Of a DNA stretch of 64,000 bases, positions 1 to 64,000 are shown in pieces. The notes beneath the pieces are model-generated. The model searched no databases, had not been told where the DNA came from, and saw only the letters and a list, made by a program, of their open reading frames with translations. The position numbers and the translations under genes were made by a program. The DNA lies in IMG/VR virus record IMGVR_UViG_3300045988_160359, positions 53,570 through 117,569 of that record. One strand, 5' to 3'. This DNA comes from a virus. Position 1 is the stretch's first letter; every line of letters begins with the position of its first letter.

Positions 1-342
1 ATGGGGACTTTCATTAATAATAATAATAAAAAACAAGAATATGGGTTATATGCTTTTAGTGATAAAAATATTGTATTTAAAATTACAGATAATGGTGAGG
101 CTTATATTTAGTAGTCTGAAAAAGCATATTGTTTATCAAATAAAGACGAAAATAGTACTCCATATTCAGTAGGTAGCAAAACTTAGCCTGTATATTTTGA
201 TTAGGGAGTTCCTAAATAGATAGATATTAATTTAACAAATATTAATAATAAAATTTCAACATTAGAAAATACTATAAGTAATTTGCAATAGACTATTTAG
301 AGTTTAACAAATAGAATTATAGCATTGGAGAAAAAAAAATGA
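1..342 (+). CDS. 3' portion of a late gene (5' end probably outside the window); coiled-coil-like C-terminus; TAG read as sense
   Basis: Frame 1 is open from nt 1 to TGA at 340-342 if TAG is sense. It contains 11 in-frame TAG in 113 codons, including a tandem TAG-TAG at 109-114. The next gene follows with an RBS. Confidence 0.4.
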
Positions 343-362
343 GAGTAAAAGGAGAATGATGT

Positions 363-3300
363 ATGCCTACAAGATTATATCCTCCTCAAATAGCAGGAAC
401 ATTACCGGCATTTTACAAATCTTATGATAGTGCTACTGGAGTGTTAAAGGAAAGTTCAATCACTATCCCGTTTACTTCAAGTGCGCTAGTTAGTTCGGCG
501 GATTTTATAGGTTTTTATTTACGTTTGAAAACCTCTTCTACAAATACATATTTATTTCCGCCAATATATTCAAAAAATTATGATAGTAAAAATTCTACGG
601 TTACATTCACATTAACCGCTGATTAGAGTGCATTATTAAATGAAGGACAATATTACAAGGTCCAAATAGCTTATGTGTCTCAATACGTTGAGAGTGAAAC
701 TACTGATATTGACAATGATGGAAATATAATTACTAATAGTGTAATGAAAAAATTAACTGGTTATTATTCTACTATTGGAATTATAAAATGTGTCCAAGAG
801 CCTAAAGTTTCTATTTAGGGTTATTCAATAGATAGTATTAATTTATTTAATAATGAATTATTTGGTGTTTATGAGTTATCTTCAAATTTAGATTAGACTG
901 AAAAAGTTTATTCTTATAATTTTTCATTCTATTTAGAAGATGGGGATTTATATTACTCCACTGGAGAACTATTGCATAACAATGCTAATGATAATGAATA
1001 TGGTTTATCTATTGATTCAGTAGTTTTAAGTAGTTTTATAAAAACTAGTGAAATATATAAATTAATTTATACAGTTACTACAATTAATGGATTGGTAGTG
1101 TCTAGTCCGACTTATAGAGTAACTGCGGAAACATTATTAGCTCCTAGTAAAAATTTAAATATTTTACCAAGAGCGGATTCAGAAACTGGTAGTATTAAAA
1201 TTAATTTTAAAGGTTTAGAAAAAACTGTTAAAATTAAAAATACAATTAAGGAATTAAAACGCAAGGAAGTATATTATAATTATAGTAAATCATTAATTTC
1301 TTAGATTAAATAGAAAATCAATCCTGACTATGAATATTAGGGAGAATAGATAACTAATTTAGAATATTTATTAAAGATAAGTTCAAATGATGAAATGACT
1401 CGATTTTTTGTTGCATTACAAAAATTATTAAGAGATAATGCGGGATTAATAAGTGAACTTTGTGGAGTCTCTCCTGGTTTGTTAATGTCATTAGTTGATA
1501 TATCAGCAGACTATACTAAAGTGTTAAGTCAATATATTATATCAATTACAAAACCTACAATGGTTGAAAAAGATTTTTAGAAGATTAATGATCAATTTTT
1601 AAAGAATACTACAAATTACATTCTTACTACAACAGGAGACTATAAAAATTTAAATACAATATTATAGGTTCGCTTAAACTCTTATGTAGGATATTTATTT
1701 AGTAGTATTGCTACTGATGAAACAGATTTTGATGAAATAGTAACAGATTAGAATTTAATTAATTTGGCTCAAAGTGTTATTACATTAGCTGGATTATCTG
1801 AAGAATTGGCTATAGAATATATGAGTATTTTAGGGTATGCAGCTAGTATTGTTGCCACTGAAGAGAAATCTGAAGATACTTATTTTGGACAATATATTCT
1901 TGTGCGCGCAAGTGAAGAAGATGATTATCGCTCTTGGTTAGAATTAAAACGTTTTAAATTAGAAAATATACGACCTTCTACAATTAATTATGTCGATTAT
2001 ACAGTAAAACAAGGTGTTAAATATATATATGGGATTATTCAATATAATTTATTTGGTATTTATTCTGCAAGAATTGAGAGTGAACCAATTTCTGTTGATT
2101 TTGAAGATATTTTTCTATATGATGGAGAACGGGTGTTAAAAATAAAGTTTAATCCTAAGGTATCTTCATTTAAATCTACCATTTTAGAATAGAAAACAAA
2201 TACGATTGGAAATAAATATCCATTTATTTTTAGAAATGGAAACGTAAATTATAAAGAATTTCCAATTAGTGGATTAATTTCATATTAGATGGATAATGAA
2301 TTATTATTTTATAATCGTGAAATTGAAGAATATATTCGTAATTATACTCTTGATTTTAAATCGTTGGAACTAAAAGAACGTATTGAAAAACAAAAAGAAT
2401 TTCTTAATAAAATGGATTAGATTTTAATAAATCCTTGTGATTTAGTAGAAGAGAATATCCATAAAGAAAGAGATTTTAAAATTGAAGTATTAAACTGGTT
2501 AAATAATGGTAAACCTAAATTATTTAAATCAGGGCCTGAAGGCAACTTTATTGTTTGTATTATGAATGTATCATTATCTCCTACCGATAGTTTAGGCCGT
2601 ATGTTACATTCATTTACTGGTCAGTGTGCAGAAATAGCTGAGTTTAATTATAATAATTTATTACGTTATGGATTTATTAAAGCAGATATTGTTAGTAAAT
2701 ATGTTTCTTTATGGAAAACTTATTATTTAAATGAATATAAGCCTGGTAAAGATATCGAATTATTATTTGACTCAGGTATTAATTATTTTGCTGTAGAAGA
2801 TTTAAAACCTGGTAGTAGTATATTTTTAACTTATGGAGATACAATCGATCGGACTGAAGATGAAATCATAATAGGTATTACTGGAGCCTATCGATATGAA
2901 AATTCTTCACGAATTATTTCAAAAATTAGAATACCTAATAGTATATATAATCATCCAGTAGGAATATTAGAGTGCCAATATCAAGGTTTAAGATATTCTG
3001 ATTTTGATGCAATTACTTCAGTTAATTTAAAAACTATAGTAAGTAATCAATATGTTGGTGTTGATCCAATATTAGAAAATATTAAAGCATTTACTACCGA
3101 TCCCTCTGATTATGCTAAACAATTATTTATAAAAGCTTTAAAAGCTTTAAATGATCGAATTTTATTAAATGATAATTTATCCTATTCAGACTTGCGAGAA
3201 AAACTGGTTGAACGAGGATTTGAGCCAGGAGATATTGTTTAGCATATTAATTCATCATTTTATAACTATGAGAAAGACAAAGTTAAAATATTGAATTTAG

Positions 3301-29569: not shown

Positions 29570-29612
29570 AAAAAAATAGCAGATAACTGAAATGTTATCT
29601 GCTATTTTTTAT
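29570..29612. terminator. Bidirectional rho-independent terminator (A9, then atagcagataac-tgaaat-gttatctgctat, then T6)
   Basis: A perfect 12-bp stem is flanked by an A-run and a T-run. It lies at the convergence of the + gene ending at 29569 and the - gene ending at 29705. Confidence 0.85.
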
Positions 29613-45249: not shown

Positions 45250-45292
45250 TAAGCCGAGAATTAAGTTTTATTTAATTCTCGGCTATTTTTTA
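45250..45292. terminator. Bidirectional rho-independent terminator (agccgagaattaa-gttttat-ttaattctcggct followed by T7)
   Basis: A 13-bp perfect stem is followed by a T-run. It lies between the convergent genes 44721-45242 (+) and 45290-45784 (-). Confidence 0.85.
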
Positions 45293-48027: not shown

Positions 48028-48522
48028 TCACATTTTTTCCCATAAGTCAAATGGAGCATAATAAACTTTTTGATTGCGTGAGCCGCGCATAGGTAAAGTA
48101 ATATCTCGTTGTTCAATTTTAAATGGGCCATCAATAATACAGTCAATATTATCAACAATATTTTTTAGATGTGGCTCTCTGCGCGTAGCCAATTCATCCA
48201 TTGTATATCCAGTCCATAAAAAAATTTTTGTTTTGGGAAGAGCTTCTTTAATATGTTCAATAATTAAATCTACAAGGAATAGATTTTCTGGGGCGAGAGG
48301 CTCTCCGCCCATAATACAAAAATCACGATGTATACCATTAGCAGTAAGAGCATTTACTATATCATCTAATGTATCTGTAGTAAATTCTTTTCCGCCATTA
48401 AAATCCCAAGTTTCTGGATTCTAACAACCTTCGCAATGTCTGGCGCATCCTTGAGTGAAAAATGAGACACACACTCCAGGAGCTCCAGCAATATCATTTT
48501 TAATTATTCCTGCGTATCTCAT
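48028..48522 (-). CDS. nrdG: Anaerobic ribonucleotide reductase activating protein NrdG (radical SAM), with one in-frame TAG
   Basis: Reverse-strand RBS aggag precedes ATG (cat 48520-48522). The N-terminus MRYAGIIKNDIAGAPGVCVSFFTQGCARHCEGC-(TAG)-NPETW matches the NrdG CxxxCxxC-x-N..TW motif. TAG at 48421-48423 joins the N-terminus in frame to ORF 48028..48312 (GGEPL, DGPF). Its ATG overlaps the nrdD TGA (ATGA). Confidence 0.8.
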
Positions 48523-50768
48523 TCCATCACTCCTACGTGTTTGACTCGATGTTCAACTTCATCTTGCTTTCCTAAATTAAATGCAGTTTTATAATTACCA
48601 GTTAAATAGCCAGTCACACGACGAAGTTGCTGGATTTCTTTACTACCACATTCTGGACATTTATCATTAAATTCACCAGTATATCCACACTTGAGACAAG
48701 TATCATTAGGAACATTTACAGCAAAATAAGGAATATCTTTGTCCATAGCATAATTTACAATTTGTTCAAGAGCAGTTAAATTATTAGATACTGTAGAGTC
48801 TAACTCAACATAAGTAATACAACCGGCATTACTATATCCAGTTAATTGACTCTCAATATCAATTTTGTCAAATGGGCTCATTTCTTTCCATACAGGAACA
48901 TGAATTGAATTAGTAAAAAATTCTTTATCACTTACATTAGGAATTTCGCCATACTTAGCCTTAAATTTCTTCATTGCAGTATAGCAGAGATTTTCCGCGG
49001 GAGTGTAATAAACACCGAAGTTTAATTTATATTGTTCCTTAAATTCCGCACAACGCTGTTTAAATAAGGATTCAATTTTTTTTGCTAATTCCATTCCCTC
49101 TGAAGTAGTATGGTCAACGCCAATAAGAATTTGTAGAGTTTCTGCTAGTCCTAACTGACCTAGAGCCAGTGTTCCATGTTTAAGCGCGCTTCTAATTCCT
49201 TCTTCTGGGATATAGCCTGCCATCAAATTATTTTCATACATGAATTTGGCTGAAGCCGGGCTTTGAGAGCAAATCCAATTAAAACGTTCAATTAATTGAT
49301 CTTTTGCTTCATGAATTTTTTCATCAAGTAAAGTCATAAAACTTCTAATTCTAGCAGCTTTTGGAGTTAATTGGAAATCACTGTTTTCAGCGGCTTCTTT
49401 TGCCAGCATAGCTAATGTAGGCATAATAATGGTTACTGGACAAATATTTCCACGGCCATCTTTTAATTGACCTAAGCCGTTAATATCATATCCATTAGCG
49501 GTTCGGCATCCCATTGTGCTAAAATAGGTGCGTGGGTCATTAATATCATAGCCAGCATTTCCAGACCAATCAACATTCGCATAATTAGGATATAATCTTT
49601 TAGCAGTAGATTTTAACGCAAGTTTAAATAAATCATAATTCGGGTCACCTGGTTCTCTATTAACACCCTTCATGCATTGGAAAATTCCACAAGGGAAAAT
49701 AGAAGTTTTATGTAATTTACCTAATCCTTCAAGAGACACTTCTAATAGGGCTTTTGTAATCATTCTTCCTTCTGGAAGAGTACAAGTTCCATAGTTAATA
49801 GAAGTAAATGGAAGTTGGTTACCACTACGACTTTGAAGAGTATTTAAATTATGATACATACCTTCAACTGCTTGATGGATTTCTTTTTCTGTCTGTTTTA
49901 GAGCATAATTATAAGCATTTTGATGACCAAATTGACTTTGCAATTCTTTATTAGAAATTTCAATAGGCTCACAATCACTCATAATTTGTAGAGCCATACC
50001 TTCACTATAATCATCAACATCAGTTAAATAGGCTTTAAAATGTTTTCTAAAACTCTTTTTAACATAAGGAACCATAGTCCAATCAAGATGAGTAGCACTA
50101 ACTCCACCAAACTGTTGAAGAGATTGTAATTGAAAAATAACTGCAACTAATTGGAATGCCGTATTTACTGAACCCGCTGGACGCACATCTGTTTGACGAG
50201 TATTAAATCCATTAGCAAGTAAATCATCAAATGGAATTGATAAACAGTTATGGTCGCCCACAGCATAATGGTCAAGGTCGTGAGTGTAAATCATATTCTC
50301 TTCATGATTACGTTTTGTGCGAGGAGATACGATATAATCAAGGGCATATTGTTTCATTAAGAGACTATTGGCTTCCCCCATACGCCCACCAAATGATGCT
50401 TCATCAACATTAGCATTTTGATTTTGAATATTAGCTCCACGAATTTTTTCACCAATCGCAGTAATAAATTCAGTTGAATGAGTGCGAGCGACTTCTTTTT
50501 TATATCTATAGCGAATATAAGCACGAGCAATATCAGGACGCTCTGATGCCATTAACGCTTCTTCAATCCAATTTTGGATGTCTTCAACATTAACACTTCC
50601 ATCGGGGAAATGACTCGCTCTATATTCTACTTCATCAGCGATGCTATTAATACTATCTGATTCAAAAATATTTTTATCTACAGCAATAAATGCTTTAGTA
50701 ATAGCATCAATAATTTTTTGTTTGTTAAATGGCATTACATCGCCATTACGTTTAATTATATAAAACAT
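48519..50768 (-). CDS. nrdD: Anaerobic ribonucleoside-triphosphate reductase NrdD (class III RNR)
   Basis: The 749-aa protein has an ATP-cone-like N-terminus. The C-terminus has a Zn-ribbon (CLKCGYTGEFNDKCPECGS) and the glycyl-radical motif RVTGYL. There is no in-frame TAG. Confidence 0.85.
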   Translation of the reverse strand: MFYIIKRNGDVMPFNKQKIIDAITKAFIAVDKNIFESDSINSIADEVEYRASHFPDGSVNVEDIQNWIEEALMASERPDIARAYIRYRYKKEVARTHSTEFITAIGEKIRGANIQNQNANVDEASFGGRMGEANSLLMKQYALDYIVSPRTKRNHEENMIYTHDLDHYAVGDHNCLSIPFDDLLANGFNTRQTDVRPAGSVNTAFQLVAVIFQLQSLQQFGGVSATHLDWTMVPYVKKSFRKHFKAYLTDVDDYSEGMALQIMSDCEPIEISNKELQSQFGHQNAYNYALKQTEKEIHQAVEGMYHNLNTLQSRSGNQLPFTSINYGTCTLPEGRMITKALLEVSLEGLGKLHKTSIFPCGIFQCMKGVNREPGDPNYDLFKLALKSTAKRLYPNYANVDWSGNAGYDINDPRTYFSTMGCRTANGYDINGLGQLKDGRGNICPVTIIMPTLAMLAKEAAENSDFQLTPKAARIRSFMTLLDEKIHEAKDQLIERFNWICSQSPASAKFMYENNLMAGYIPEEGIRSALKHGTLALGQLGLAETLQILIGVDHTTSEGMELAKKIESLFKQRCAEFKEQYKLNFGVYYTPAENLCYTAMKKFKAKYGEIPNVSDKEFFTNSIHVPVWKEMSPFDKIDIESQLTGYSNAGCITYVELDSTVSNNLTALEQIVNYAMDKDIPYFAVNVPNDTCLKCGYTGEFNDKCPECGSKEIQQLRRVTGYLTGNYKTAFNLGKQDEVEHRVKHVGVME

Positions 50769-50826: not shown

Positions 50827-50840
50827 TTGTTGTAAATAAA

Positions 50841-51437
50841 TTAATAAGTTATGTCCAGATGCTCCGGCCACCGAGACAGGAATAATGCTAAATCTTTATA
50901 TATACATTCTAATTCCGCAGGAGTATTATTTATATATAACCAATTACATAAATCATCAGCATCTTCAAAATCAAGTTTATCTGTTTTATATCGACGAATA
51001 ATTTCATCAATATCCGGGTTAGCCTCTCGATTTAGCTATCTAATTAATCGAATTTTATCATCTGCGTGAATATAAACGATAATTAAATTTACTCGTTTAT
51101 CATGTAATAAAATCTCTGCGCCTTCTGGATTAAATACTCCTACATTGATAGCGCCTTCTTTGACTGATTCAATTCCTGTGCCATAGCACCATTCATTAAA
51201 AACAGTAGCTTCAAACATTTGATTCTATAAAATCATTTCAGCAAATTTTTCTGCTGAGATAAAATGGTAGTTAATACCATCCACTTCTTTTTCTCTTGGA
51301 GGTCTTGAAGTATAACTTATAATTTCATGTAGAGGTAATTTACCATTATAATAATGTTTTGTATCATCAATTAGTTTACGGAGAATGGTATCTTTACCAC
51401 TCCCCGCTTCACCAATTAATGCTAATATATTATACAT
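50841..51437 (-). CDS. gmk: Guanylate kinase-like nucleoside monophosphate kinase (198 aa), with 2 in-frame TAG
   Basis: It has Walker A GEAGSGKDT and the guanylate kinase signature TSRPPREKEVDGINYHFIS...CYGT. ORFs 51225..51437 and 51036..51218 are joined through TAG 51225-51227, and a second TAG lies at 51036-51038. It stops at TAA (tta 50841-50843). Its ATG overlaps the dnaE TAA (TAATG). Confidence 0.7.
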
Positions 51438-54400
51438 TAATTAGCTCCTCCATTGTATCTTTCATCTTTTAATTCAATATCACCATTATCTAAAATTTTA
51501 TCAATTTTATACAACTGGTGACCGCCAGAACTAGCATACTTTTTTGCTATAAAATTATCGCCTTGACGAATGCCTTGAACAGCAATCATATTACCACGAT
51601 TAAACCAACTTTTTTCCATTACTTTTTTAGTGCCATCAATTTGTTTTTCTGAAATCTGTTTATCAAATAATGAGAAATATTCTTTTCTAAATTTAACTTC
51701 GACAACTCCAGAAGTAGTAAGTAATGTAACTGTAGATTTAGTTTTATTTTTAGCAATACAAGTTCCGCAAATCTTATGTAATTTATACATAGTAATTGTT
51801 TTATTGCCTTTAGAAAATGTTTTATCAATAATGGGCTCTTCTGGCAGATGGAAGAAATCAACAAATCCATATTTACTATTATTTACATGGGCTAATTCAT
51901 GCTCATGATAATAGAAACATAAGACTTCCATTTCCCACGCTGAAATAGATTTAGATGCATATTTATCCCAATCTTCTTTAAATATTTTATTATTTAATTT
52001 ATTTAAAATAATATCTTTATTTTCTGCAATCCAAGTTCGGAATATATCCATATATTTTTGATATACTTTATCCCAAGCTTTAGAATCTAATAAATAACAA
52101 CTACCAATTAAATCATCGCAACCAATTTCAATTAAAAAATTAATCGCTCGTTCATCAACTTTATAGATATTACCATCTTTACAAACAGCTTTTAAATATC
52201 TATTAAATTCATAAACTCGTCTTGCCATTACATATTCATCTTTATCTTCTGGTAATAAATTATAACGAATTAGAGTTGCTAAATTTTGTAATGTTAAACG
52301 AGATTTTTTATCACACGTTTCCCAAATATACCAAATCATTAAATCTTTACGGTCCATCATTTCATCAAATGCACCGCTTTTAATCAATGAAATCATTGCT
52401 TGCTTACTTGGTTTAATACGATAATAAAAATCTTTCACTGATATATACGGACGATTTGCAATAATATTATTAATCAAATCATCGCCAACGTTCAACAATC
52501 CTTTTAAGCCAAATAAAATTTGGTTATTTTCAACATCAGGCGCAAATCCAAATCTAGCTTTATTAATATCAGCCAAACTTACTTTAATACCAGCTGACTG
52601 TATATCTCCAATAGCTTTTGCGATTTTACCATAATCAGTGCTAGCTACTTTTTTATTTTTTGATTTATTCTCCATTATATCTTCTGGAGACGCACCACAA
52701 TATTCTTCACCGGAATAATCATAATCTTCATCAGTTATTTCTTCTGGTTTATTTTCTAACGCTCCACTGTTTACAATTAAACAAGCGCAATTCCAATAAA
52801 TAGGATTGAAATTAATTGCCAAATAAATCATTTGAATTGCAACAAATGAATAAGGAAGAGAGTGATTTAAGCTAAACGCATATCCTAACTGAGGAGCGAT
52901 CGCATTTTCCCAAAAATATTCAGCATTATGTTCATTAGTAAATTTACTAAATACTTGCTCTTTTAATTGAGGAATTTTTGCCATTTGCTTTTTAGCAACA
53001 ACTTTACGCGCGCTATTTGCTTCGCCTAATGTAAATCCAGCGACATCCATAAGGATTTCCATCATTTGCTCTTGAAGTGGACAACATCCATAATATCTAT
53101 CACAATGCTTGTGCATTTTTTCAATCATTTCTTCTGGCAAATGATTATCTTTCATTTCTTTATCAAAAACTTGAATACCAGCTTTTTGGATTCGATAATA
53201 TCTATCTTGCTGACTTTCTTTGCCCTTTTCACTCATTAGACGCATCATAGCGTTTGCAGCGGTCATTTCCATAGGATCTTTTGGTTTCAATTTTTTAGCA
53301 ATAGCTAAACCTACACCAGTAGAGAATTGGAATACGTCAAGAATATCTCCCGCCGCCAAGTGTTCCCAAATGCGTTTATCAGAAGTATCTATTACTTCTG
53401 GATGAAGATATTTATTATAAAAATCACGTAGACCAATATCAGGGATTTGATTATCTTCTTTTAATAAATTATAGCATTGAATAATTTTATCGCAAGCTTC
53501 TGTTACCAGGAAGTCATATTTAGTATCTCCGGCGGCTTCGGCTTTATGTAAGTCCCAACAAGTAATTAAATCACCACTAGGAGTTTTCATAAATGATGCA
53601 GTTTCAAATGGGTCTTCACCATATAAAATAACACCAGAAGCATGAGAAGAACGTTTATTAATAATTCCTTCAATATATACAATAATATCCAATAAACCAG
53701 GATATTGATTTACCTTTTGGATAAATGTAGTAACTGGCTTTCTATCTTTATCAGGATTACCATTTACCACATCTTTCATCGGCCATAAAATTCCACGTTC
53801 CTGCGGGATTAATGAAGACATAAATTGAGCTTCATCTACATCAATACCATTGGGATAATCATCACTTCTATAGCCACGACAAGCAGTTAAGATTGCTTGC
53901 TTTGTTCCTTCAGTTCCAAATGTTGCAACTTGAATTAAACCTAATGTTCCACGTTCTTTACGAATAGCACTAAAAATTGCAGGGCGTTTACTTGGCGCAA
54001 GATCGATATCAATATCAGGCAATTCCGCGCGCTCTAAATTTAAGAAACGCCAATATGGTAATCCCCAACGAATTGGATCTAGCTGAGTAATTCCTAATAA
54101 ATAATTAGATAAGAAACCAGTTGCTGAACCTCGACCAGGACCAACAATACTCCCGCACTCCCAAAACAAATCAATATAATGTTTAAATGTATTAAAATAA
54201 GCAAACAAACAGTCTTCAAGTTTTTCGCCAATATTTTTAATTACATTAGCTTCAGTTTCAAGACGAGATATATATATTTCATTCTCATATAATTGTTTTT
54301 CTTGCAAGGCTTTAATACATTCATTTATCCAATATCGTTCTTGAATATCATCACTATTAATTAATGAACAAATAACAGGATATTTCTCAAGCCAATCTGC

Positions 54401-55390
54401 TGGAATAAATCCTTTTTTATAATCAATTACTTCTACTCTTGGAATTTGTTGTTTACGTTCCAGAGAATAAAATTTTATTTTCTTTTGAATTTCTAATGTA
54501 TTGTCAAAAATCCAATTCATAATCTCTTGAGGAGTTTTATCTTTATCCCAAGTATCCATATATGGTAGCATTAATTCTTCTACTTCATCACTATCCATTA
54601 CATAAGCAAACTCATAGAATGAATCAACTTCACGCTCGCCATCTTTAGAATTTAAATAAGCTTTATGAATTGGTCTATCTTTCTTTGTTAAATAATGAGC
54701 ATCGGTTCCAATTACCATTTTTAAATCATATGCTTTTGCTACTTGATAAATCTTTTGATTTACTACAAGTTGGTCTTTCATGGTAGATGGAGCGCACTCC
54801 AAATAAAAATCATCTTTACCAAAAACATTTATACAAAATTCAATGAATTTAACAACATTATTATAATAAATGCTTTTAGTTTGCATATCGCCTACTACTT
54901 CAGCCTCATACATTGGATATAAATTAGAACCTAATTCTCCACCAATGCAAGCTGTTGTTGCGATAATATGTCCTTTGTATTGTGCCATTACATTTTTTAA
55001 TTCAGACTTTAATGTTGGCACACGTTCCATTTTTCTATCAGTATAAGAATTAATCCAAGCAATTGAACTTAATTCTTTTAATGCTTTATAACCAATTTCA
55101 TCTTTTGCCAATAGAATAAAATGATAATACTTTTGACCACAATCTCTTGTATCAGTTAAATAAATTTCATTACCTAGCGCAATAGTAAAATCAGGATGCT
55201 CTTTTAAAAAATCTTTTGCAAATTGATTAACTTCCATATGAGCAGATAAACAGTCATGGTCAGTAATTGCTATACCACTTAATCCTAATTTTTCTGCTGT
55301 TTTAATCAACTCTTCTGGTCTATTAATAGAATCTAATAAACGCAGATTTGAATAGTGAGTATGGTTGTGTACGCCAAAATATGGTCGCAT
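51437..55390 (-). CDS. dnaE: DNA polymerase III alpha subunit (DnaE-type C-family polymerase) with N-terminal PHP domain
   Basis: The 1317-aa protein has a PHP domain (HNHTHYSNLRLLDSI...ITDHD) and the polymerase core motif GSIVGPGRGSATGF. The start was chosen at the second ATG (55388-55390), which has the strong RBS aaagaggtgga. The first ATG at 55408 lacks an SD. There is no in-frame TAG. Confidence 0.85.
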   Translation of the reverse strand: MRPYFGVHNHTHYSNLRLLDSINRPEELIKTAEKLGLSGIAITDHDCLSAHMEVNQFAKDFLKEHPDFTIALGNEIYLTDTRDCGQKYYHFILLAKDEIGYKALKELSSIAWINSYTDRKMERVPTLKSELKNVMAQYKGHIIATTACIGGELGSNLYPMYEAEVVGDMQTKSIYYNNVVKFIEFCINVFGKDDFYLECAPSTMKDQLVVNQKIYQVAKAYDLKMVIGTDAHYLTKKDRPIHKAYLNSKDGEREVDSFYEFAYVMDSDEVEELMLPYMDTWDKDKTPQEIMNWIFDNTLEIQKKIKFYSLERKQQIPRVEVIDYKKGFIPADWLEKYPVICSLINSDDIQERYWINECIKALQEKQLYENEIYISRLETEANVIKNIGEKLEDCLFAYFNTFKHYIDLFWECGSIVGPGRGSATGFLSNYLLGITQLDPIRWGLPYWRFLNLERAELPDIDIDLAPSKRPAIFSAIRKERGTLGLIQVATFGTEGTKQAILTACRGYRSDDYPNGIDVDEAQFMSSLIPQERGILWPMKDVVNGNPDKDRKPVTTFIQKVNQYPGLLDIIVYIEGIINKRSSHASGVILYGEDPFETASFMKTPSGDLITCWDLHKAEAAGDTKYDFLVTEACDKIIQCYNLLKEDNQIPDIGLRDFYNKYLHPEVIDTSDKRIWEHLAAGDILDVFQFSTGVGLAIAKKLKPKDPMEMTAANAMMRLMSEKGKESQQDRYYRIQKAGIQVFDKEMKDNHLPEEMIEKMHKHCDRYYGCCPLQEQMMEILMDVAGFTLGEANSARKVVAKKQMAKIPQLKEQVFSKFTNEHNAEYFWENAIAPQLGYAFSLNHSLPYSFVAIQMIYLAINFNPIYWNCACLIVNSGALENKPEEITDEDYDYSGEEYCGASPEDIMENKSKNKKVASTDYGKIAKAIGDIQSAGIKVSLADINKARFGFAPDVENNQILFGLKGLLNVGDDLINNIIANRPYISVKDFYYRIKPSKQAMISLIKSGAFDEMMDRKDLMIWYIWETCDKKSRLTLQNLATLIRYNLLPEDKDEYVMARRVYEFNRYLKAVCKDGNIYKVDERAINFLIEIGCDDLIGSCYLLDSKAWDKVYQKYMDIFRTWIAENKDIILNKLNNKIFKEDWDKYASKSISAWEMEVLCFYYHEHELAHVNNSKYGFVDFFHLPEEPIIDKTFSKGNKTITMYKLHKICGTCIAKNKTKSTVTLLTTSGVVEVKFRKEYFSLFDKQISEKQIDGTKKVMEKSWFNRGNMIAVQGIRQGDNFIAKKYASSGGHQLYKIDKILDNGDIELKDERYNGGAN

Positions 55391-55461
55391 AATCCACCTC
55401 TTTCTCATTTATTTTATTTATAATAATATTATATCATATAATTTATTATAAATCAATTGAA

Positions 55462-56658
55462 TTATTTTCTAATAAGAACTAAACGCTCTTTAGCTCTTGT
55501 GGCTAAAGTATATAGATATTTTTTATGAGTTTCTCTATCATAGGGAGGAGCTTCTTCAAATCCTAATACTTTATTATATTCACTACCTTGGGCCTTCCAA
55601 CAAGTAATAGCATAGGCATATGAAAAATCAAATGGAGGGTCAGGACAATTTTTATTCTTTTTAATTTGATAAATTTGTTTTCCTTCAAATGTTTTTTTGC
55701 CAGTTAATAATTGATTATAATCAATAGGGACTCCACAAAATGTATCATCATCATCAAGTCTTAATTGAGCATACATAAATGGTACAGGATTTTTATAAAT
55801 CCAATATGGAAATCGTATATCTTCGACATAAAAATCTTCTAATGTTCCAATAGTCCCATTAGTTAACGCCCATGTATGATTAGAAGACATAAAATCCCAT
55901 TGGTTATGTAATCCAATTAATTTATCTCCAATACAAGGCCGGTCTGGGTCATATCCTTTTTGAGTTCGGACTATACGATTAATATCATTTCGTTTTTCAT
56001 TTGTTGAGCAAATAATTTGGTCTGCCCAATTATACATCTAAGGAAGCATTTCATCCCATTTAAATCGAATTAAAACTTGTTCCTCAGTACCCTTATATGA
56101 AGAGATTGGTTTGTTATCACGAATCCACATTGAAAATCTAATAATTTCACTATCTTGAGCTTGACGCATAATTTCATCAAGGAAAACATGCGGATTGTCG
56201 AGCACATGATTATTATCTTCATCGACTATTGGCGGTAATTGACCTGGGTCTCCAGTAGCTAAAATATAGATGCCATGAGATAAAAGCAATTCCCACATAG
56301 CTTTAGGGAGCATTGAAACTTCGTCTACTACAATTACTTTATAGTGTACTATTTCTTCTCTTGGTCTTGGGAAAAATTTATATGTTCCATTCGGCGTAAT
56401 CCGTGCTTTATATAATAACTAATGAGCAGTAGTCGCATTTGGACAACCTTTAGTCTAGAGAACTGTAGCTGCTTTACCAGTAAATGCCACATAACAAACT
56501 TCTTCTTCTGGATTTACTCCCAAAGCAGAGATAATAAATTTAATTAGAGTTGATTTACCACTTCCAGCATAACCTGCTATTACTGTATATCGTTCTTTAT
56601 TTTTATATCGTTCTACTGCTATTTTTAATCCTTGTTCTTGTTTATTCGTTAAAATCAT
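55462..56658 (-). CDS. Dda/RecD-like SF1 DNA helicase (398 aa), with 3 in-frame TAG
   Basis: ORFs 56455..56658, 56038..56313 and 55462..56037 are in one frame, separated by TAG at 56455-56457, 56419-56421 and 56038-56040. Read-through restores Walker A GYAGSGKST, motif Ia TAH-(TAG)-LL, Walker B VIVVDEVSML, GDPGQLPP and motif VI WKAQGSEYNKV. Confidence 0.8.
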
Positions 56659-56889: not shown

Positions 56890-56954
56890 TATTATCTCCA
56901 TAAATGAAAATAAGGGTTATATGGAGAAATACCTCTCCATATAACCATATATAA

Positions 56955-57785
56955 TTAAGATGTAAAATATTCAAAAGCGATTAAAGCATTTGATTGTCTC
57001 ACATCATAAGAACCTGATCCACAGCGTTCATAACATTTAGCAAATGCTAATGCAATTTCTTCAATATCAGTCATTTCAATAAAATCATCATAATCAAATC
57101 CTGATTTATATTCACTACCGAATGAATTAAATTCATTTTCAATAGTTTCAACTAAATATTGACATTGTTCAGATAAATTCATACCTTTAGTATTACTATA
57201 TTTTAAACTCCATTGGCATATGCCGTAATATCCTGGATGGGTATTGGTAGTATGTTCAATATCTAAAGTATGCCCACCAACTTCAGCCATTATATTACCA
57301 AGGATACCAGCGCATATTTCATCGCTATATCCTTGATCACTTAAATATAGCCAAATACTAGAAGCAGTTGGGTATTTCTCAATTCGAATTTCCCAACGTT
57401 TTTGTTCTAACCGATTTTCATAAATTGTAATCAATTTATTTAATTGATCAATTTCAGCAGTTGTTGTTTTAACTACTGGATGTTTGTCAGTATATCCTAA
57501 ATTATCAGCCAATACTAGCATTTGTTCAGCGGATTCTTTTAATGTTTTACACTCTTGGATTAGTGTTCTTAATTCTTGTGTATCTTCTGTTTTAGATATA
57601 TTTCTAATTTGTTTATACTCAATAGTAGTAGTAAGATCTACCACAGAAGACATTTCAGAAGGGATGTAAGCTTCCGAAAGTGCATTTCGAGTAATAGCTG
57701 ACGCTTCAACGATTTTAACGCTGCATCCAATAATTAATACACAGCTTAATGCAATCAGCCATTTATTCAAAATAGTATTTTTCAT
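56955..57785 (-). CDS. Secreted lipoprotein with a phage-tail-lysozyme-like (tape-measure lysozyme-type) C-terminal domain, 276 aa
   Basis: Reverse-strand RBS aggagg precedes the ATG. It has a signal peptide with the lipobox LIIGCS. The C-terminal motif CAGILGNIMAEVGG...YGICQW resembles the AGILGN...ESG...G(I/L)AQW lysozyme-like domain of tape measure proteins. Confidence 0.5.
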   Translation of the reverse strand: MKNTILNKWLIALSCVLIIGCSVKIVEASAITRNALSEAYIPSEMSSVVDLTTTIEYKQIRNISKTEDTQELRTLIQECKTLKESAEQMLVLADNLGYTDKHPVVKTTTAEIDQLNKLITIYENRLEQKRWEIRIEKYPTASSIWLYLSDQGYSDEICAGILGNIMAEVGGHTLDIEHTTNTHPGYYGICQWSLKYSNTKGMNLSEQCQYLVETIENEFNSFGSEYKSGFDYDDFIEMTDIEEIALAFAKCYERCGSGSYDVRQSNALIAFEYFTS

Positions 57786-57838: not shown

Positions 57839-59584
57839 TTAAAAATAATAATTTGCCCTATCTACAATTTCGTAATCTTTAATCATAACTTGAGGACTAA
57901 TTTTATTATTCCAAATATTTCGTTCGCATTCACCAACGATATTAATTGTCACATAACCTAATTCAGAATATAGTTTATCATATTCCTCTTCAGACGACCT
58001 AAACTTCATAAAATTGATGCCGTTAGGCAACATTATCTTTAGAGTAGGATTTTTATCTGGCGATAGAATACGTATATTATCCTTGTGGACTTTAATACCT
58101 TCTACAGCAATTTCAGCTTCTTCTACTCCTTGGCCCCATAAGCTTTTCATTCCTGCGATGTCAATAACTTCATCAGGAGTCAGCTCATCTGATTTGTAGA
58201 TAAAATCTACATTATAGATTGGGGTGAAATCAAAACCATCTAGAGCAGAATTTGTAGATGCAATAAATGCGCTAATATCTTCATCTTTAATACCAATACC
58301 AAATGCATTAGCATGACCTTCAGCATATATAACGTATTTATTATTTTCTAAAAATCCTCTAAAATCTTTCAATCGAGATTTGTCGTATCCTCTACCAGAC
58401 CCTTCCCAAGTTATTGTACCATCTTCATTTTCAATTTTATTTAAGATTAAAACAGGTCTTTGATATTCACTCATTAATTGATTTGCTATTAATCCAGTTA
58501 GGTTGCGGTCAGTAATCAAATCATCTAATTGAACGATTAAGATTTTATTACTCAATAAATTTTGATTTACGATTATCTATTCAATTCTTTCCAAGCTATT
58601 GTCTCGAATTTTGGTTTGTCTACTTTTAATATTGGTACAATTTCGACAAGCTTGTTCTACTCTCGTCTCTGCTTGACCTTTACATCCACGTTTCGTTGAT
58701 GGGACAAGTTCGTATCCCCGAAAATCAAGCATTGATTCAAATAGCATGAGCTTTTCTTCTTGCGTTCCGACGCGAGTTGTCGCGTTAATTAATGGAGCAA
58801 TATAAAAAGCTACTCCAATAGGTGTAATCTCATTTGTAAAATGAAATTGGTCTTTATCAATCGCACCTCTGAAGTAAGGATTGCGGATTTGTTGAAGTCC
58901 TTTATCTATTAATCTTCTTGTTTCAAAATCTCGCACATCCATCATGTCGGCCACCAATCCAAGAGCCACTAAATCTAAAAACTTCTATGCATGGTCAGTT
59001 TTTAATAACATATCAATATAGCAACAAAATTTCCAGACCATTGCTACACCAGATAATGATTTAGTAGGATAATCACATAACTAATTATTAATTATACAAG
59101 CATATTCAGAAATGTGATCAGCTTCATGGTGGTCTATTACCAGCACGTCAACTCCGCTCAAATTTAAATATTCATGGGCTTCATAATCATTTGAACTTGA
59201 ATCTGGAGCGATTACTAATTTAACATCTTCCGGAATTGTATCTGGAATGATGCCGTGCTGTTTTCCCATATGGACACGATAAGAAATGTTATTATTCACA
59301 AAACTGGGAAATAGACAATATAGATAATTCATTAGTAATGCAGCAGAAGTATATCCATCGCAATCACTATCTACCTATATCAGAACTTTGTCATTTTGTG
59401 AAATATGTTTAATAAGCATTTTAGCACCTTCATCCAAGTGCGGTATTAACCGAGGGTCTAAAATGTCATTATCAGTAGTGTTTAAATAATGATTAATCTA
59501 ATCGTAGGGTATTCCACGATTTACTAGCACTTGTTCTACCGGTGTATATATCGGGAACTCGGGTGCTCTTAGGCGGTATTCCAT
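57839..59584 (-). CDS. recJ: RecJ-like DHH-family single-strand DNA exonuclease (581 aa), with 5 in-frame TAG
   Basis: Reverse-strand RBS aaggaggg precedes ATG (cat 59582-59584). ORFs 59081..59332, 58577..58969 and 57839..58555 are in one frame. They are joined by TAG at 59513-59515, 59375-59377, 59081-59083, 58985-58987 and 58556-58558. Motifs present are VDSDCDG (DHH motif I), VIDHHEADH (DHH) and ALGLVADMMDV (RecJ motif). It stops at TAA (tta 57839-57841). Confidence 0.75.
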
Positions 59585-59968: not shown

Positions 59969-60122
59969 ATTGTGATTCTCCTTTTATTACTTTTCCACAG
60001 TTGGGACATTTATCATATTCTTCTTTAAAACTTTTATAACATAATGGACATTGATATCTTATATCTGGAAATGGATCTAAATCTGCGGCTGCATTATATT
60101 TATTCCAATGTAATTCGCTCAT
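59946..60122 (-). CDS. Small Zn-ribbon protein (58 aa; CPLC...CPNC)
   Basis: Its ATG (cat 60120-60122) overlaps the primase TAA (TAATG), and the RBS aaagga lies upstream. Two CxxC pairs are present. It stops at TAA (tta 59946-59948). Confidence 0.5.
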   Translation of the reverse strand: MSELHWNKYNAAADLDPFPDIRYQCPLCYKSFKEEYDKCPNCGKVIKGESQYERYRLG

Positions 60123-61225
60123 TATATTATAATCCTTTCTTTAAATAATTTCAAGAAAATATCTTTACCATCATCGATTGGTGAATCCTTATAGCCAAGT
60201 AATCCTGTTTTATCAAACATAAATGATATTGTAGCATAATTTTTAAATTTACTTCTTGCTTTTAATAAATTTAATTTAAGATGTTTAAATTCATCATCAC
60301 CGAGTTCTTTAAACTGCCTATCGAATGCAATAATAATTTCTTCAACTCCACAATCTAATAATAATTGAACTTGATGACTAGATAAATTACTACCGCAACA
60401 GGCCACAGATATATCATTATTAAGACCAAAATAAGTTTTATACTTTAAAACAGATTTTTCCCCTTCAAATACTATTGCTTTTTTAAATGTCTTTATAGCA
60501 TTTTTACTCAGATTTAAGTTATATAAATTCATACCAAGAGGATGGCTATACCATTGATTATTTAAATGAATGGGTCGATATTTTCCATATAATTCACACT
60601 CTTCTTTACATAATGATCGCCCACGCAAACCAATAAATCGTCCATCAATATCATAATGTGGAATTGTTATTTGATCGCCTCCTGGATAAAAACCAATTTT
60701 AGCAGCATTTAATGCTTCTTGTGAGATACCTTCATCTAACCAAGGTGTTAATTGAACTTTATAATTGAATCTTGTTAAAATTTTTTCATCATAAGTTTTT
60801 AATGTTATTTGATTGGTTTTCTTCTCAATACTTTGAATACGACTATATTCATTAAAAATTTTCCAATCTTCAAGAGTTTTGGCTTCATCTAATTCTTGAA
60901 TTGTTCCACCTAAACCAAAACGATGAGCTACCCATAAAACTGCTGAATTTAAATCAAATTCTCGCTCATGTTGAATACGCATTACTTTCGTGCATAATTC
61001 AAATACATCAAATGTGGCGTCGCATCCGGTATAACATTTAAACAATCCCGTATTTTCATAATAGTAAAGTTTTTTACTACCTTCGCCAGGCATATTATGA
61101 CAAATAGTTGAAGAGACGATCCCAGTTTCATTATACTCAGGATCGCCTCCCCATTCTAACAACAAGTCATAAATATTATCGGTAGTAAGTTTTTCCCGGA
61201 TTTCTGACTTGTCGAATACAACCAT
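60122..61225 (-). CDS. dnaG: DnaG-like DNA primase (CHC2 zinc finger plus TOPRIM)
   Basis: It has the CHC2 zinc-finger pattern STICHNMPGEGSKKLYYYENTGLFKCYTGCDATFDVFELC and the TOPRIM-like segment VFEGEKSVLKY. The 367-aa ORF is intact with no TAG. Confidence 0.75.
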   Translation of the reverse strand: MVVFDKSEIREKLTTDNIYDLLLEWGGDPEYNETGIVSSTICHNMPGEGSKKLYYYENTGLFKCYTGCDATFDVFELCTKVMRIQHEREFDLNSAVLWVAHRFGLGGTIQELDEAKTLEDWKIFNEYSRIQSIEKKTNQITLKTYDEKILTRFNYKVQLTPWLDEGISQEALNAAKIGFYPGGDQITIPHYDIDGRFIGLRGRSLCKEECELYGKYRPIHLNNQWYSHPLGMNLYNLNLSKNAIKTFKKAIVFEGEKSVLKYKTYFGLNNDISVACCGSNLSSHQVQLLLDCGVEEIIIAFDRQFKELGDDEFKHLKLNLLKARSKFKNYATISFMFDKTGLLGYKDSPIDDGKDIFLKLFKERIII

Positions 61226-61389: not shown

Positions 61390-61400
61390 AATTATTCTCC

Positions 61401-62096
61401 TTATAGAATTAATTTTTCTAATTCATTGCTTTTATTTAAATATGAAACTCTAATTAATGGGATATTATGAGTATCACAATAATTATCTTTTAATGTATCA
61501 CATAACTATTGATATTTAATTTTTTCTTTTGTATTCCATCCACCCATATAATTTATTGAATGTGTTTCTCCATCATACTCAATTAATTTTTTTACATTAT
61601 CCTAATCATCTAAAATAGCAAAATCAAATCTTAAGTATCCATTTTTAGGAGATAATAAATCAAGAAAAACATATTCTTTTTTATATTTAATATTATTTGT
61701 TTTAAGAATAGTCTCAATAAGATATTCGCCGTGAGATTGCTTCATACAACCGCAAGACATAGTATTATTCTATTTTAAATTATTTGTAGATACTTCAGTT
61801 ATTTTTCCACAATCACATTGGCATTCCCAAATAATACCTCTATTATTGGTTCGTTTTCCAGTATCTTTTATAACTGTTAATTTACCAAATTTCTAACCAA
61901 TTAAGGTATGTGAAATTTTTTCTTTATGTAAACATCCACAAGACTGAGTTAATCCTGATATTAAATTACTATGCTAAATACTTTTAATATTTCCACAAGA
62001 GCATTGACAAATCCAATATTTATTTTTTGATTTTCGTTCTGTGTCTAATTTTAATACAGTTAATTTATTAAAAACTTGACCTGTTAAATCAACCAT
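61401..62096 (-). CDS. Homing-endonuclease-like zinc-finger protein (231 aa), with 5 in-frame TAG
   Basis: Reverse-strand RBS aaggaga precedes ATG (cat 62094-62096). Two repeats of the form YW-C-C-CGN...L-SG-T-SCGC are present (YWICQCSCGNIKSI-(TAG)-HSNLISGLTQSCGC and WECQCDCGKITEVSTNNLK-(TAG)-NNTMSCGC). A C-terminal nuclease-like segment (YLRFDFAILDD...IEYDGETH) follows. It stops at TAA (tta 61401-61403). It is invisible in the ORF track because of the TAG codons. Confidence 0.55.
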
Positions 62097-62160
62097 CTTT
62101 TTTCATCTCCTTCTCTTATTTTTAAGAGAAATAGAGAGCATTTTAATGAATTTTGTCCGC

Positions 62161-63693
62161 TCAAAACGCGCTCTCTTCATCAAAATTAATTTTTATATCA
62201 TCTATTGGAACTAACTCATATCCATAAGTAGTACAAAACATAGGTTTAATTCTACAAGTTCCTAAATCTGCTTTGCACCACAAATATACACCTTTATATC
62301 TTCCACGTCTATTTTTATAGACCGACATTTTTATTGTTGGAATTTCAAAAATATTTGTTTGCAAAATATCATTTAATGCTACTAAATCATCATCTTTTAC
62401 TGGTAATAAAATTGAACCATAGTCAATTTTATCAGCGATAGCTTTTGCTCCTCGTAATAGATTTTGGTCTGGTGTTTCAGCATCTTGATATGCACCATTT
62501 AACTGAGTAGCAGACATAATAAATACGCCATATTGATTACAAATATCTTTTAATTTAGTTGATAACATAAATAAGATATTATCTTCGCGTAATTTAACAC
62601 CACCACTACGACGAGTAATTTCTTCAAGAATTTTTAAACTTGTATGAATATAATCATGAAATACATATTTTACTTCATGGTCGCGAATACCTTTTTTAAT
62701 TTCATTCTCAACATCCATCAGAGAAAAATCAGGTAATTCACGAATGTAAATAGGACTAGAAGCAATAATTTTACCAGCCTCTAATACTCGCTCCTCTTCA
62801 TCGCCAACATATAATTTTGTATTCAAAATATGTTCTTCATTAACATTTGATAAAAATGCTAACATCATAGTTTGAATTTCACTAATTTCTTGCTCTGTGG
62901 TAATATATAAAACTGGTTCACAAATACCATTTTTAATCCAACCAAATGTTTCATCATAAATTTTATTACACCCAAGATTACAAGCATCGGCAATCATTGA
63001 ACGAGTTTTTCCAATACCAGAAGGGGCTGAACGCAAATAAAATTTCTTTAATCTGGCTCCACGCGTCACTATATTAACAAGTGGCCCGTATAATGGTGAA
63101 CCAATTTCTGGATGTTCCTTTAGAGAATCGAGCAAATCAAAAATTCCATGACCTGCTTGAACTGCTACACCTTCTATATTATTTACATATTCATATTTAA
63201 TCGTTTCAATTCTATCATCAACTAATTTTGCGATATTTTCTAATGATGAATTATCTAAATTATCTTCTTGTAATTGTTTTTTCTCGACATCTAAAATATT
63301 ATCAGGGTCATAAATAAATGATACATCTATACCATAATTATCATATGCTCTTAATAGAGACATTTTCTTTAAACGGCTATAATAGTAATCAAATGATAAT
63401 GGTTTTGCTGTATCTGTAATATTTAAAAGCCATTCTTCGCCTTTATTTGCTTTATATATACCTTGATATTTTGGACGAGAGGCTAAGAAATCATTAATAT
63501 TTTCTAAGGTAACCTTTTCAGCACCTAATTCATGAATTTTATAAATAGCCCCAAACACAACTCTGTGGAATGGGTCTGGAAAATCTTCTTCGGTTATTGA
63601 ATACTTATCAGTAAAATCAAGTAATTGTGGCGAATTATAAACACACCCAATCACTTGCATTATTGCAGTTGGGTCGACATATTTAGATGCCAT
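62161..63693 (-). CDS. dnaB: DnaB-family replicative DNA helicase
   Basis: The 510-aa protein has a DnaB-like N-domain and a RecA-like core with Walker A SAPSGIGKT. Reverse-strand RBS gaggaggg precedes the ATG. There is no TAG. Confidence 0.75.
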   Translation of the reverse strand: MASKYVDPTAIMQVIGCVYNSPQLLDFTDKYSITEEDFPDPFHRVVFGAIYKIHELGAEKVTLENINDFLASRPKYQGIYKANKGEEWLLNITDTAKPLSFDYYYSRLKKMSLLRAYDNYGIDVSFIYDPDNILDVEKKQLQEDNLDNSSLENIAKLVDDRIETIKYEYVNNIEGVAVQAGHGIFDLLDSLKEHPEIGSPLYGPLVNIVTRGARLKKFYLRSAPSGIGKTRSMIADACNLGCNKIYDETFGWIKNGICEPVLYITTEQEISEIQTMMLAFLSNVNEEHILNTKLYVGDEEERVLEAGKIIASSPIYIRELPDFSLMDVENEIKKGIRDHEVKYVFHDYIHTSLKILEEITRRSGGVKLREDNILFMLSTKLKDICNQYGVFIMSATQLNGAYQDAETPDQNLLRGAKAIADKIDYGSILLPVKDDDLVALNDILQTNIFEIPTIKMSVYKNRRGRYKGVYLWCKADLGTCRIKPMFCTTYGYELVPIDDIKINFDEESAF

Positions 63694-64000
63694 TCACACC
63701 CTCCTCTTCGTCTAAAAATGAAAATAAATTTTTCTTATAGGGTTTCCGTTGAGGTATTGGTATAGTTATTTCTTGAACTTGTGGAACATATAATGAGATA
63801 TTTTTATCTTCATTTCTTTGTTTTATCATCCATAAGTTATAGTAATAATTATAAGCATCTTTATATATCCAAGGAATTATACCAACTCCACCATTTGCTT
63901 TTTCGACAGAATTTCCTTTAACTTCATAAAAATATATAAGGGCTTTTAACATACCTGAATAAGTATAATTGTATTCCTCTACATATTGATTTAATTGTTT
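63683..64000 (-). CDS. Hypothetical protein, 5' end outside the window (frame open to nt 64000)
   Basis: ORF 63683..63952 stays open upstream to the window edge. Its TAA (tta 63683-63685) overlaps dnaB by 11 nt. Confidence 0.4.
   Translation of the reverse strand, partial: KQLNQYVEEYNYTYSGMLKALIYFYEVKGNSVEKANGGVGIIPWIYKDAYNYYYNLWMIKQRNEDKNISLYVPQVQEITIPIPQRKPYKKNLFSFLDEEEGVNGI

Follow-up and report, generated by a model that had tools for sequence, protein, structure and literature searches.

Several groups of phages are known to reassign the stop codon TAG to glutamine (genetic code 15), and here I ask how in-frame TAG codons are distributed among the genes of one such phage, represented by 64,000 nucleotides of the IMG/VR record IMGVR_UViG_3300045988_160359 (positions 53,570 to 117,569; this whole stretch is referred to as the window). 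Borges et al. (bioRxiv 10.1101/2021.08.26.457843; Nat Microbiol 2022) described the recoded clades Lak, crAss-like, Jade, Sapphire, Agate, Garnet, Amethyst and Topaz, reported recoded structural and lysis genes in eight clades and 'variable' use in the replication machinery, and combined a per-family test of TAG against CAA/CAG with the hypothesis that recoding controls timing. The same hypothesis was put forward by Yutin et al. (2021, PMC7886860) for crAss-like phages, in which reassignment falls mostly in late genes, suppressor tRNAs are often, but not always, present, and the code switches over short phylogenetic distances. Metaproteomics is reported to confirm the reading of TAG as glutamine in crAss-like phages (Peters et al., 2022, PMC9523058).

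Like the clades of Borges et al., the window phage reads TAG as glutamine, concentrates its in-frame stops in structural genes and belongs to a group in which the code changes between close relatives. Unlike what their model expects, namely that lysis genes are the most recoded, its holin is TAG-free, as are its putative major capsid protein and other codon-optimised virion genes. The crAss-like phages are an unrelated order with Bacteroidota hosts in which TAG or TGA is reassigned, and in-frame stops in their major capsid, TerL and portal genes served as evidence of recoding (PMC7886860), whereas the capsid gene of the window phage has none.

A second comparison is offered by phAss-1 (OQ749652), a human-gut code-15 phage of the proposed Phassvirus group (Babkin et al., 2023, PMC10607447). 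It has the same modules as the window phage. Homologues include its major-capsid-like protein (50% identical), NrdD (41%), DnaE (39%), the tape-measure protein (35%), RecJ, YorF, AAA_24, GyrA and GyrB; besides the capsid, DnaE and tape-measure proteins there are about 25 homologues in all across both modules. The gene-by-gene TAG pattern is also the same. A whole-genome code-15 gene table of phAss-1 has TAG-rich tape-measure (110 of 249 glutamine codons), fibre, RecJ (4/22) and GIY-YIG-like (8/24) genes, alongside TAG-free genes for the major-capsid-like (0/15) and major-tail-like (0/14) proteins, DnaE (0/59), primase (0/16), NrdD (0/29), GyrA and GyrB (both 0). Its authors list TerL and the tape-measure gene as recoded; the major capsid gene and DnaE are not on that list (PMC10607447). 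The two phages differ in size and composition (136 kb and 44.5% GC vs about 197 kb and 30% GC), and protein identities of 25-50% are low enough to exclude membership in the proposed genus Phassvirus.

The best annotated DnaE homologues, at 39% identity, are YorL of SPbeta and its counterparts in Enterococcus phages, that is, large siphoviruses of the SPbeta and EF1/VRE9 types, which have genomes of 125-142 kb and use the standard code with no in-frame TAG. EF1/VRE9, but not SPbeta, encode homologues of the putative capsid protein (41% identical) and of a 360-aa virion protein (39%), and the SPbeta-named Pfam families YorF, YonB, YonD_N and YonG_N are matched in the window-phage module. A near-identity search returned no close DNA-level match among annotated phage genomes. 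Judged from signature homologues and shared modules, the window phage fits the phAss-1-like assemblage ('Caudoviricetes code 15 clade') and, more broadly, an assemblage of phAss-1, Enterococcus EF1 and SPbeta-YorL-like phages; its host is therefore probably a Bacillota or Clostridia species. The source is a phage of about 197 kb from human-gut metagenomes: near-identical proteins occur on thousands of human-gut contigs, some up to about 198 kb, and IMG/VR strains with DnaE 97-100% identical reach 197,697 bp.

The uneven use of TAG and the timing hypothesis are thus already published (Yutin 2021; Borges 2021/22; Babkin 2023), and the finding correctly reproduces a known phenomenon, here in a clade that lacks a close annotated relative. 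The refinements are incremental: the signal is depletion of TAG and not saturation, only certain genes are consistently protected, and codon bias forms an additional axis.

TAG as a glutamine codon

The window has a GC content of 30% and encodes 46 called genes when TAG is read through. On the plus strand, from position 1 to about 41.9 kb, lies a tail/fibre module. Its products include three proteins of 2200-2700 aa, a tail protein (phrog_1887) and several fibre-like paralogues, together with a radical SAM enzyme and a glycine-rich repeat protein. A short mixed region that includes the holin follows, and the minus strand (64.0 to 45.3 kb) carries a replication and nucleotide-metabolism module in the order DnaB, HNH endonuclease, primase, RecJ-like, lysozyme-domain protein, RecD-like, DnaE, guanylate kinase (gmk), NrdD, NrdG, dUTPase and RuvC (Table 1). 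No code-change module was found in the accessible sequence (window and flanks).

Under the standard code, 52% of the window falls within open reading frames of 150 aa or longer; treating TAG as a sense codon raises this to 91%, and treating TGA as one gives 53%. All 46 genes stop at TAA (36) or TGA (10), but the gene calls presupposed this, so it is not independent support. The identity of the inserted residue comes from 11 gene families aligned across 49 related loci, in which glutamine is enriched 10-fold at columns opposite TAG and every other residue at most 1.5-fold. At the codon level, TAG in one lineage corresponds to CAA/CAG at otherwise invariant glutamine columns of NrdD, NrdG and RecJ. 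TAG is therefore decoded as glutamine, that is, by genetic code 15, and both the recoding and the residue are directly established. If TAG is counted as glutamine, the TAG-rich genes contain 2-5% glutamine, the same range as the other genes. Codon totals in the window are 184 TAG, 481 CAA and 49 CAG. Tyrosine, serine and leucine had been considered as alternatives because of a long variable arm in related tRNAs, but tyrosine is enriched just 1.05-fold opposite TAG, and serine and leucine not at all.

Depletion of TAG in a subset of genes

TAG accounts for 157 of the 451 glutamine codons, TAG/(TAG+CAA+CAG), in the tail/fibre block (1-41913; 0.35) and for 21 of 213 in the replication block (45290-64000; 0.10), a difference with a Fisher odds ratio of 4.9 (p = 9e-13). 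Out of frame, TAG is equally dense in both blocks (0.045 vs 0.040 per codon), and composition is therefore not the cause. The asymmetry that a sequence-only reading had described is thus real, and its opposite, a uniform TAG frequency across functional classes, is contradicted: heterogeneity is also significant inside the tail/fibre block (permutation p = 8e-4) and the replication block (p = 1e-4), and a composite of the window and its flanks (89 genes, 35,831 codons) is uneven as well. The gene identities proposed in that reading are upheld by Pfam and PHROGs, and most of its counts can be reproduced, namely 45 TAG in the 2368 codons of gene 363-7469 (1.9%), none in DnaE, NrdD, DnaB, primase, dUTPase or RuvC, and a few in the RecD-like helicase (3), RecJ-like exonuclease (5), gmk (2), NrdG (1) and HNH endonuclease (5). 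The fragment at 1-342 does contain a tandem TAG-TAG (109-114), but seven TAG in total instead of eleven, and the giant fibres, said to carry dozens, have 17 each (other large tail genes, 14-16).

The description of late genes as saturated with TAG does not survive comparison with a neutral expectation, for which I used the leucine codons {TTG, CTA, CTG} as a rough analogue of {TAG, CAA, CAG}. TTG makes up 0.55 of this set in late genes and 0.43 in replication genes, against TAG shares of 0.35 and 0.10, respectively, and of 0 in the TAG-free replication genes; the G-ending shares for lysine and glutamate are about 0.12-0.17 in both blocks. Tolerant genes have TAG shares of 0.3-0.6, about what base composition predicts (0.43-0.55), and so lie near or somewhat below mutational equilibrium. 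The informative signal is therefore the depletion of TAG in a subset of genes, not its enrichment elsewhere.

Which zeros are informative depends on gene size. For DnaE (0/45) the probability of a chance zero is 0.009 even at the low rate of the replication block, and this is the most robust TAG-free gene. NrdD (0/33) is marginal (P = 0.03), and for dUTPase, RuvC and other small genes with 4-6 glutamine codons a chance zero has a probability of 0.54-0.66. The late block has nearly TAG-free exceptions of its own at 14863-16521 and 25164-27134 (1/15 and 1/14), and beyond it lies the holin (0/8).

The comparison set of 49 loci, each comprising DnaE (41-100% identical) and 10 kb on each side, shows which zeros are conserved. 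The family totals combine 10 diverged lineages; in nine of them the replication block contains in-frame TAG. TAG is rarest in DnaE (5 of 384 glutamine codons, a share of 0.013), the lysozyme-like gene (1/42, 0.02) and primase (3/113, 0.03), and then rises through DnaB (9/99, 0.09), dUTPase (5/53, 0.09), RecD (15/142, 0.11), NrdD (35/270, 0.13), NrdG (9/53, 0.17), RecJ (53/201, 0.26) and gmk (11/35, 0.31) to RuvC (28/73, 0.38). As a conserved property, protection from TAG is thus limited to DnaE, primase and the lysozyme-like gene. Of the TAG-free core that the sequence-only reading had proposed, DnaE and primase stand; NrdD, DnaB and RuvC carry TAG in relatives, and chance could account for the zeros of dUTPase and RuvC. 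Only in the window strain or its clade do NrdD, DnaB, RuvC and dUTPase lack TAG, and NrdD of strains 95% identical to the window's has five TAG, three of them at CAG codons of the window.

The sites that carry TAG differ from lineage to lineage, mostly through CAG-to-TAG substitutions. RecJ is TAG-rich in most TAG-recoded relatives, with 27 of its 39 TAG columns specific to one lineage, and NrdG has about one TAG in most TAG-recoded lineages, at differing sites. The single NrdG TAG of the window (48421-48423, minus strand, codon 34) directly follows the CxxxCxxC iron-sulfur cluster motif, and its column holds Q or H in relatives. A conserved 'gate' codon is ruled out by the shifting sites in NrdG and the lineage-specific columns in RecJ.

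In L023, L047, L049 and L055, as well as L133 and L147 (L-numbers are labels of related loci retrieved for comparison), whose DnaE is 47-69% identical, the replication modules contain no in-frame TAG or TGA. Open reading frame coverage in L023 and L049 nonetheless rises under TGA read-through elsewhere in the locus. I looked for a gene-specific pattern with TGA in the relatives that seemed TGA-recoded, and their replication blocks hold neither in-frame TGA nor TAG. Several genetic codes appear to coexist in this phage family. The window and its many sequenced relatives therewith make a sharper test bed, where orthologues can be compared between TAG-recoded lineages and lineages with stop-free replication modules.

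These data also bear on the idea that history and not selection explains the pattern, the TAG-free genes having been acquired recently from standard-code sources or their zeros having arisen by chance while TAG accumulated. Whole replication blocks free of in-frame stops (L023, L047, L049, L055), small genes whose zeros fit chance and the flipping of the NrdD state between strains would all be expected. Yet the depletion of TAG in DnaE and primase extends over lineages 41-100% identical and to phAss-1, both genes agree with the genome at large in codon usage and in GC content at third codon positions (GC3), the DnaE zero is improbable even at the replication-block rate, and the homing endonucleases, which are mobile, are TAG-rich (13/41). 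I regard this explanation as very improbable.

Codon bias, timing and translation

The flanks of the window extend the comparison to head genes and further replication genes. The left flank holds the remaining tail module, with a tape-measure protein of 2766 aa (63 TAG among 170 glutamine codons), and, further left, a head module with TerL-like (8/24) and portal-like (8/25) genes, or about 33% TAG. Adjoining these two genes are a 312-aa head protein with 0/13 and the putative major capsid protein with 0/11, and a 360-aa virion structural protein (phrog_2729) has 0/8, so that the three together have 0/32. The capsid protein was identified from an 87%-identical protein named 'major capsid protein' in nr and from the Pfam family YonB. 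PDB sequence searches and Pfam yielded nothing useful beyond YonB for the putative capsid and tail proteins; these identities rest on the nr name, YonB and the phAss-1 paper. In the right flank are GyrB (0/11), GyrA (2/21), a ligase (1/18) and two GIY-YIG endonucleases (5/20 and 3/10).

The three virion genes share an unusual codon usage. Their index of G-ending codons is 0.57-0.80, compared with about 0.12 elsewhere, and they use CAG together with other G-ending codons; YorF-like and AAA_24 genes in the right flank have the same bias and no TAG. CAG supplies 5-10 of the 8-13 glutamine codons in each of the five genes, AAG equals or exceeds AAA in the two checked, and the two measured have 38-41% GC in a 30%-GC genome. 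In the composite, the five genes have 0/51 TAG vs 329/1140 for all other genes (p = 6e-8). Broken down by category, the TAG share is 0.44 in small head-tail genes and 0.34-0.42 in tail and fibre genes, with 0/69 for DnaE, primase and DnaB combined; across tail, fibre, tape-measure, TerL-like and portal-like genes it is 0.27-0.44.

One could therefore ask whether efficiency alone is enough: TAG would be decoded more slowly or less completely than CAA/CAG, and selection against it would scale with expression or with the cost of truncation, without any temporal gating. The link to codon bias is seen directly, in that stronger G-ending bias goes with a lower TAG share (Spearman rho = -0.34, p = 0.013), none of the five most biased genes contains TAG, and the share per gene is continuous from 0 to 0.61. 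However, TAG is absent from DnaE, primase, DnaB, GyrB and NrdD although their codon usage is of the ordinary AT-rich kind (G-index 0.14-0.17), and both the gene with 45 TAG and the tape-measure gene with 63 need near-complete suppression when they are made. Efficiency as the only cause is distinctly improbable.

The published alternative is a pure timing switch, in which TAG marks genes that are translated only after the phage suppressor has come on, genes without TAG are early, and no other factor plays a part. It has been proposed for many phage clades, it fits the 35% vs 10% contrast between the late tail/fibre block and the replication block, and it fits DnaE and primase, which are TAG-free or nearly so in all lineages, including phAss-1. 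It does not account for late, codon-optimised virion genes that are TAG-free beside TAG-rich TerL-like and portal-like genes, nor for the TAG-free holin, nor for the lack of conservation of the TAG-free state in NrdD, DnaB and RuvC. The TAG-free late virion genes and the holin mean that early versus late is not the only axis of TAG distribution. The sequence-only reading, which had favoured the timing switch, had itself remarked that the boundary is not simply one of early and late; RecJ, RecD, gmk and NrdG do carry TAG, and some late virion genes lack it.

The organisation of transcription is a further difficulty for such a switch. TAG-free genes overlap TAG-containing neighbours, the dnaE stop with the gmk start and the nrdD end with the nrdG start, and the only strong terminator-like hairpins in the window lie at 56946-56915 and 45252-45284. 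TAG-free and TAG-containing genes are thus transcribed together, and any gating has to occur at the level of translation. A promoter scan of the window found sites no more numerous than in shuffled sequence. I consider a pure timing switch unlikely as the whole explanation. For gene callers that assign codes block by block, interleaved TAG-free and TAG-containing genes within one operon are to be expected.

At this point the best candidate, with a probability of roughly 60%, is a reading with two components, in which TAG is an approximately neutral glutamine codon that has been purged from the replisome core and from the most codon-optimised genes. In most genes TAG would be an ordinary synonymous codon, its share (about 0.3-0.6) approaching the prediction of AT-rich mutation bias. 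Purifying selection would strip it from the replisome core, consistently from DnaE and primase, which are TAG-poor in every lineage, and mostly from DnaB and gyrase; these proteins are presumably needed at full length while the phage suppressor tRNA-Gln(CUA) is still scarce. The second component would act on efficiency, with the most codon-optimised and presumably most translated genes (those for the major capsid protein, the 312-aa head protein, the 360-aa virion protein, YorF-like and AAA_24) avoiding TAG whether early or late, as would fit TAG decoding being costly where translational flux is high. Selection would then work through both the timing and the level of the suppressor tRNA, and models of phage recoding would need an expression-level term in addition to a timing term.

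Several points weigh against this two-component reading. ARAGORN detected no tRNA gene either in the window itself or across roughly 50 kb of window-clade flanks, with about 90 kb of the genome outside the search. The flank genes were taken from near-identical strains and not from the window's own contig, high expression is inferred solely from codon bias and from one source's name 'major capsid protein', and the leucine analogue gives only a rough neutral expectation. The TAG-free NrdD depends on NrdG, which contains TAG, and gmk likewise stands beside DnaE; such pairs fit neither component neatly.

It is also conceivable, though doubtful, that TAG acts as a graded, gene-by-gene throttle on translation tied to the level of the suppressor tRNA and not as an on/off late switch. 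Such a throttle would set relative output within operons (DnaE and gmk, NrdD and NrdG, major capsid vs TerL and portal) and would exempt the replisome core and high-copy virion proteins. Its decoder, going by relatives, would be an unusual tRNA-Gln-like tRNA(CUA) whose variable region contains an additional hairpin.

Suppressor tRNAs and other features of the window

By analogy with its relatives, the window clade would encode a suppressor tRNA. In a sister clade with DnaE 76% identical, every genome examined has an array of 15-22 tRNAs with exactly one tRNA(CUA), located about 50-75 kb upstream of dnaB and, where this could be determined, oriented like the replication genes. The matching region of the window-clade genome lay outside the sequence searched. 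Pattern scans based on the phAss-1 suppressor tRNAs, and a scan with a sister-clade array protein, matched no window-clade contig but did match the sister clade and 54 other contigs. Of the three tRNA-Sup(CTA) in phAss-1, two lie immediately upstream of nrdD, whereas the equivalent position in the window is occupied by gmk and has no tRNA. An Rfam search of the window also gave no match.

Among these relatives I observed a family of tRNA(CUA) of about 90 nt that have an additional hairpin within their variable region (consensus GGTCTCTAAAACC...CCYTYTGAAGG...GGGTTCGAATCCC), some members of which have tRNA-Gln-like acceptor and D arms. This form is present on 54 contigs of IMG/VR, among them the sister clade and phAss-1, and a literature search on phage suppressor tRNAs with a variable arm found no description of it. 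Other sister-clade genomes instead have a normal tRNA(CUA) of 72-73 nt, and in L319 and L329, both of the sister clade, a tRNA(UCA) adjoins the tRNA(CUA).

Table 1. Features of the window and of related loci, with TAG given as a fraction of all glutamine codons (TAG included).
Feature	Position	Strand	TAG/Gln	Remarks
3' end of 936-aa tail-module gene	1..342	+		7 in-frame TAG in 113 codons; tandem TAG-TAG 109-114
Giant tail-module protein, 2368 aa	363..7469	+	45/94 (48%)	N-terminus hypervariable between strains
Tail protein, 923 aa	7466..10237	+	14/27	phrog_32343, phrog_1887
Large structural-block protein, 1070 aa	10595..13807	+	16/40	
Fibre-like protein, 303 aa	13924..14835	+	5/12	
Thr/Ala/Gly-rich fibre-like protein, 552 aa	14863..16521	+	1/15	TAG-poor; no Pfam or PHROG match
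Giant fibre, 2724 aa	16664..24838	+	17/74	phrog_14959
Structural-block protein, 656 aa	25164..27134	+	1/14	TAG-poor
Fibre-like protein, 567 aa	27866..29569	+	5/23	C-terminal domain common to 33640-40170 (translations)
436-aa protein	29609..30919	-	5/18	opposite strand within fibre block
Cys-rich protein, 270 aa	31020..31832	+	5/13	
Radical SAM protein in fibre module	32137..33495	+	4/16	phrog_1802 E = 2e-50; weak Pfam Radical_SAM
Giant fibre, 2176 aa	33640..40170	+	17/52	
Glycine-rich-domain and Listeria-Bacteroides-repeat protein	40192..41913	+	8/16	Pfam PF12810, PF09479
Holin	42300..42713	-	0/8	phrog_13712 E = 6e-33
Terminator-like hairpin, 15-bp stem	45252..45284			between convergent plus and minus blocks
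Last gene of minus-strand block, 164 aa	45290..45784	-	3/8	
RuvC-like resolvase	45863..46372	-	0/4	phrog_159; zero not significant
dUTPase	46372..46929	-	0/6	Pfam PF00692; zero not significant alone
NrdG activase	48028..48522	-	1/4	Pfam PF13353; overlaps nrdD end
NrdD anaerobic ribonucleotide reductase	48519..50768	-	0/33	Pfam PF13597; relatives 1-9 TAG
Guanylate kinase (gmk)	50841..51437	-	2/3	Pfam PF00625; start overlaps dnaE stop
DnaE-type polymerase (SPbeta YorL-like)	51437..55408	-	0/45	Pfam; 39% identity to YorL
RecD/PIF1-like helicase	55462..56658	-	3/17	Pfam
Terminator-like hairpin, 14-bp stem	56915..56946	-		divides replication block into at least two transcription units
Lipoprotein-signal and Phage_lysozyme2 protein	56955..57785	-	0/11	Pfam PF18013
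RecJ-like DHH exonuclease	57839..59584	-	5/21	Pfam
DNA primase	60122..61225	-	0/11	phrog_47 E = 2e-35
HNH homing endonuclease	61401..62096	-	5/11	phrog_374; some near-identical strains lack it
DnaB helicase	62161..63693	-	0/13	Pfam
Five G-ending-biased genes (YorF-like, AAA_24, major capsid, 312-aa, 360-aa)	L072 7268-8206, 8358-9368 (just past window 64000); L158 624-1730, 5839-6918; L345 9048-9983			
tRNA(CUA) genes of about 90 nt	L220 7965-8054; L229 9078-9167 (-); L203 7777-7866; L166 12442-12532 (phAss-1)			

The gene that ends at position 342 is complete in the near-identical strain L064 (7173-9980), where 30 of its 49 glutamine codons are TAG. The 2368-aa protein encoded next to it has no match in a PHROG search. 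Its N-terminus (363-1300) is just 61-66% identical to that of L065-L069 even though DnaE of these loci is 97-99% identical, making it a hypervariable, probably recombining gene; a link of this variation to host range is possible. In relatives the holin has 0-2 TAG among 8-10 glutamine codons, apart from L044 with 4/9.

In the fibre module, the C-terminal half of the Cys-rich protein contains many CxxxC-type repeats around a Gly/Pro linker, and a single 92-aa open reading frame separates its gene from that of the radical SAM protein. The two could be a substrate and its maturase. The lysozyme-like protein carries a lipoprotein-type signal (…LIIGC) and is encoded in the middle of the replication block, followed by the hairpin with the 14-bp stem.

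The HNH endonuclease gene between dnaB and primase is missing in several strains with neighbours 97-100% identical. Among the more distant relatives, several have a DnaE match of 4.9-5.1 kb vs 4.0 kb, which suggests the insertion of an intein or an intron endonuclease (loci of both observations: L035, L036, L039, L043, L055, L062 and L063).

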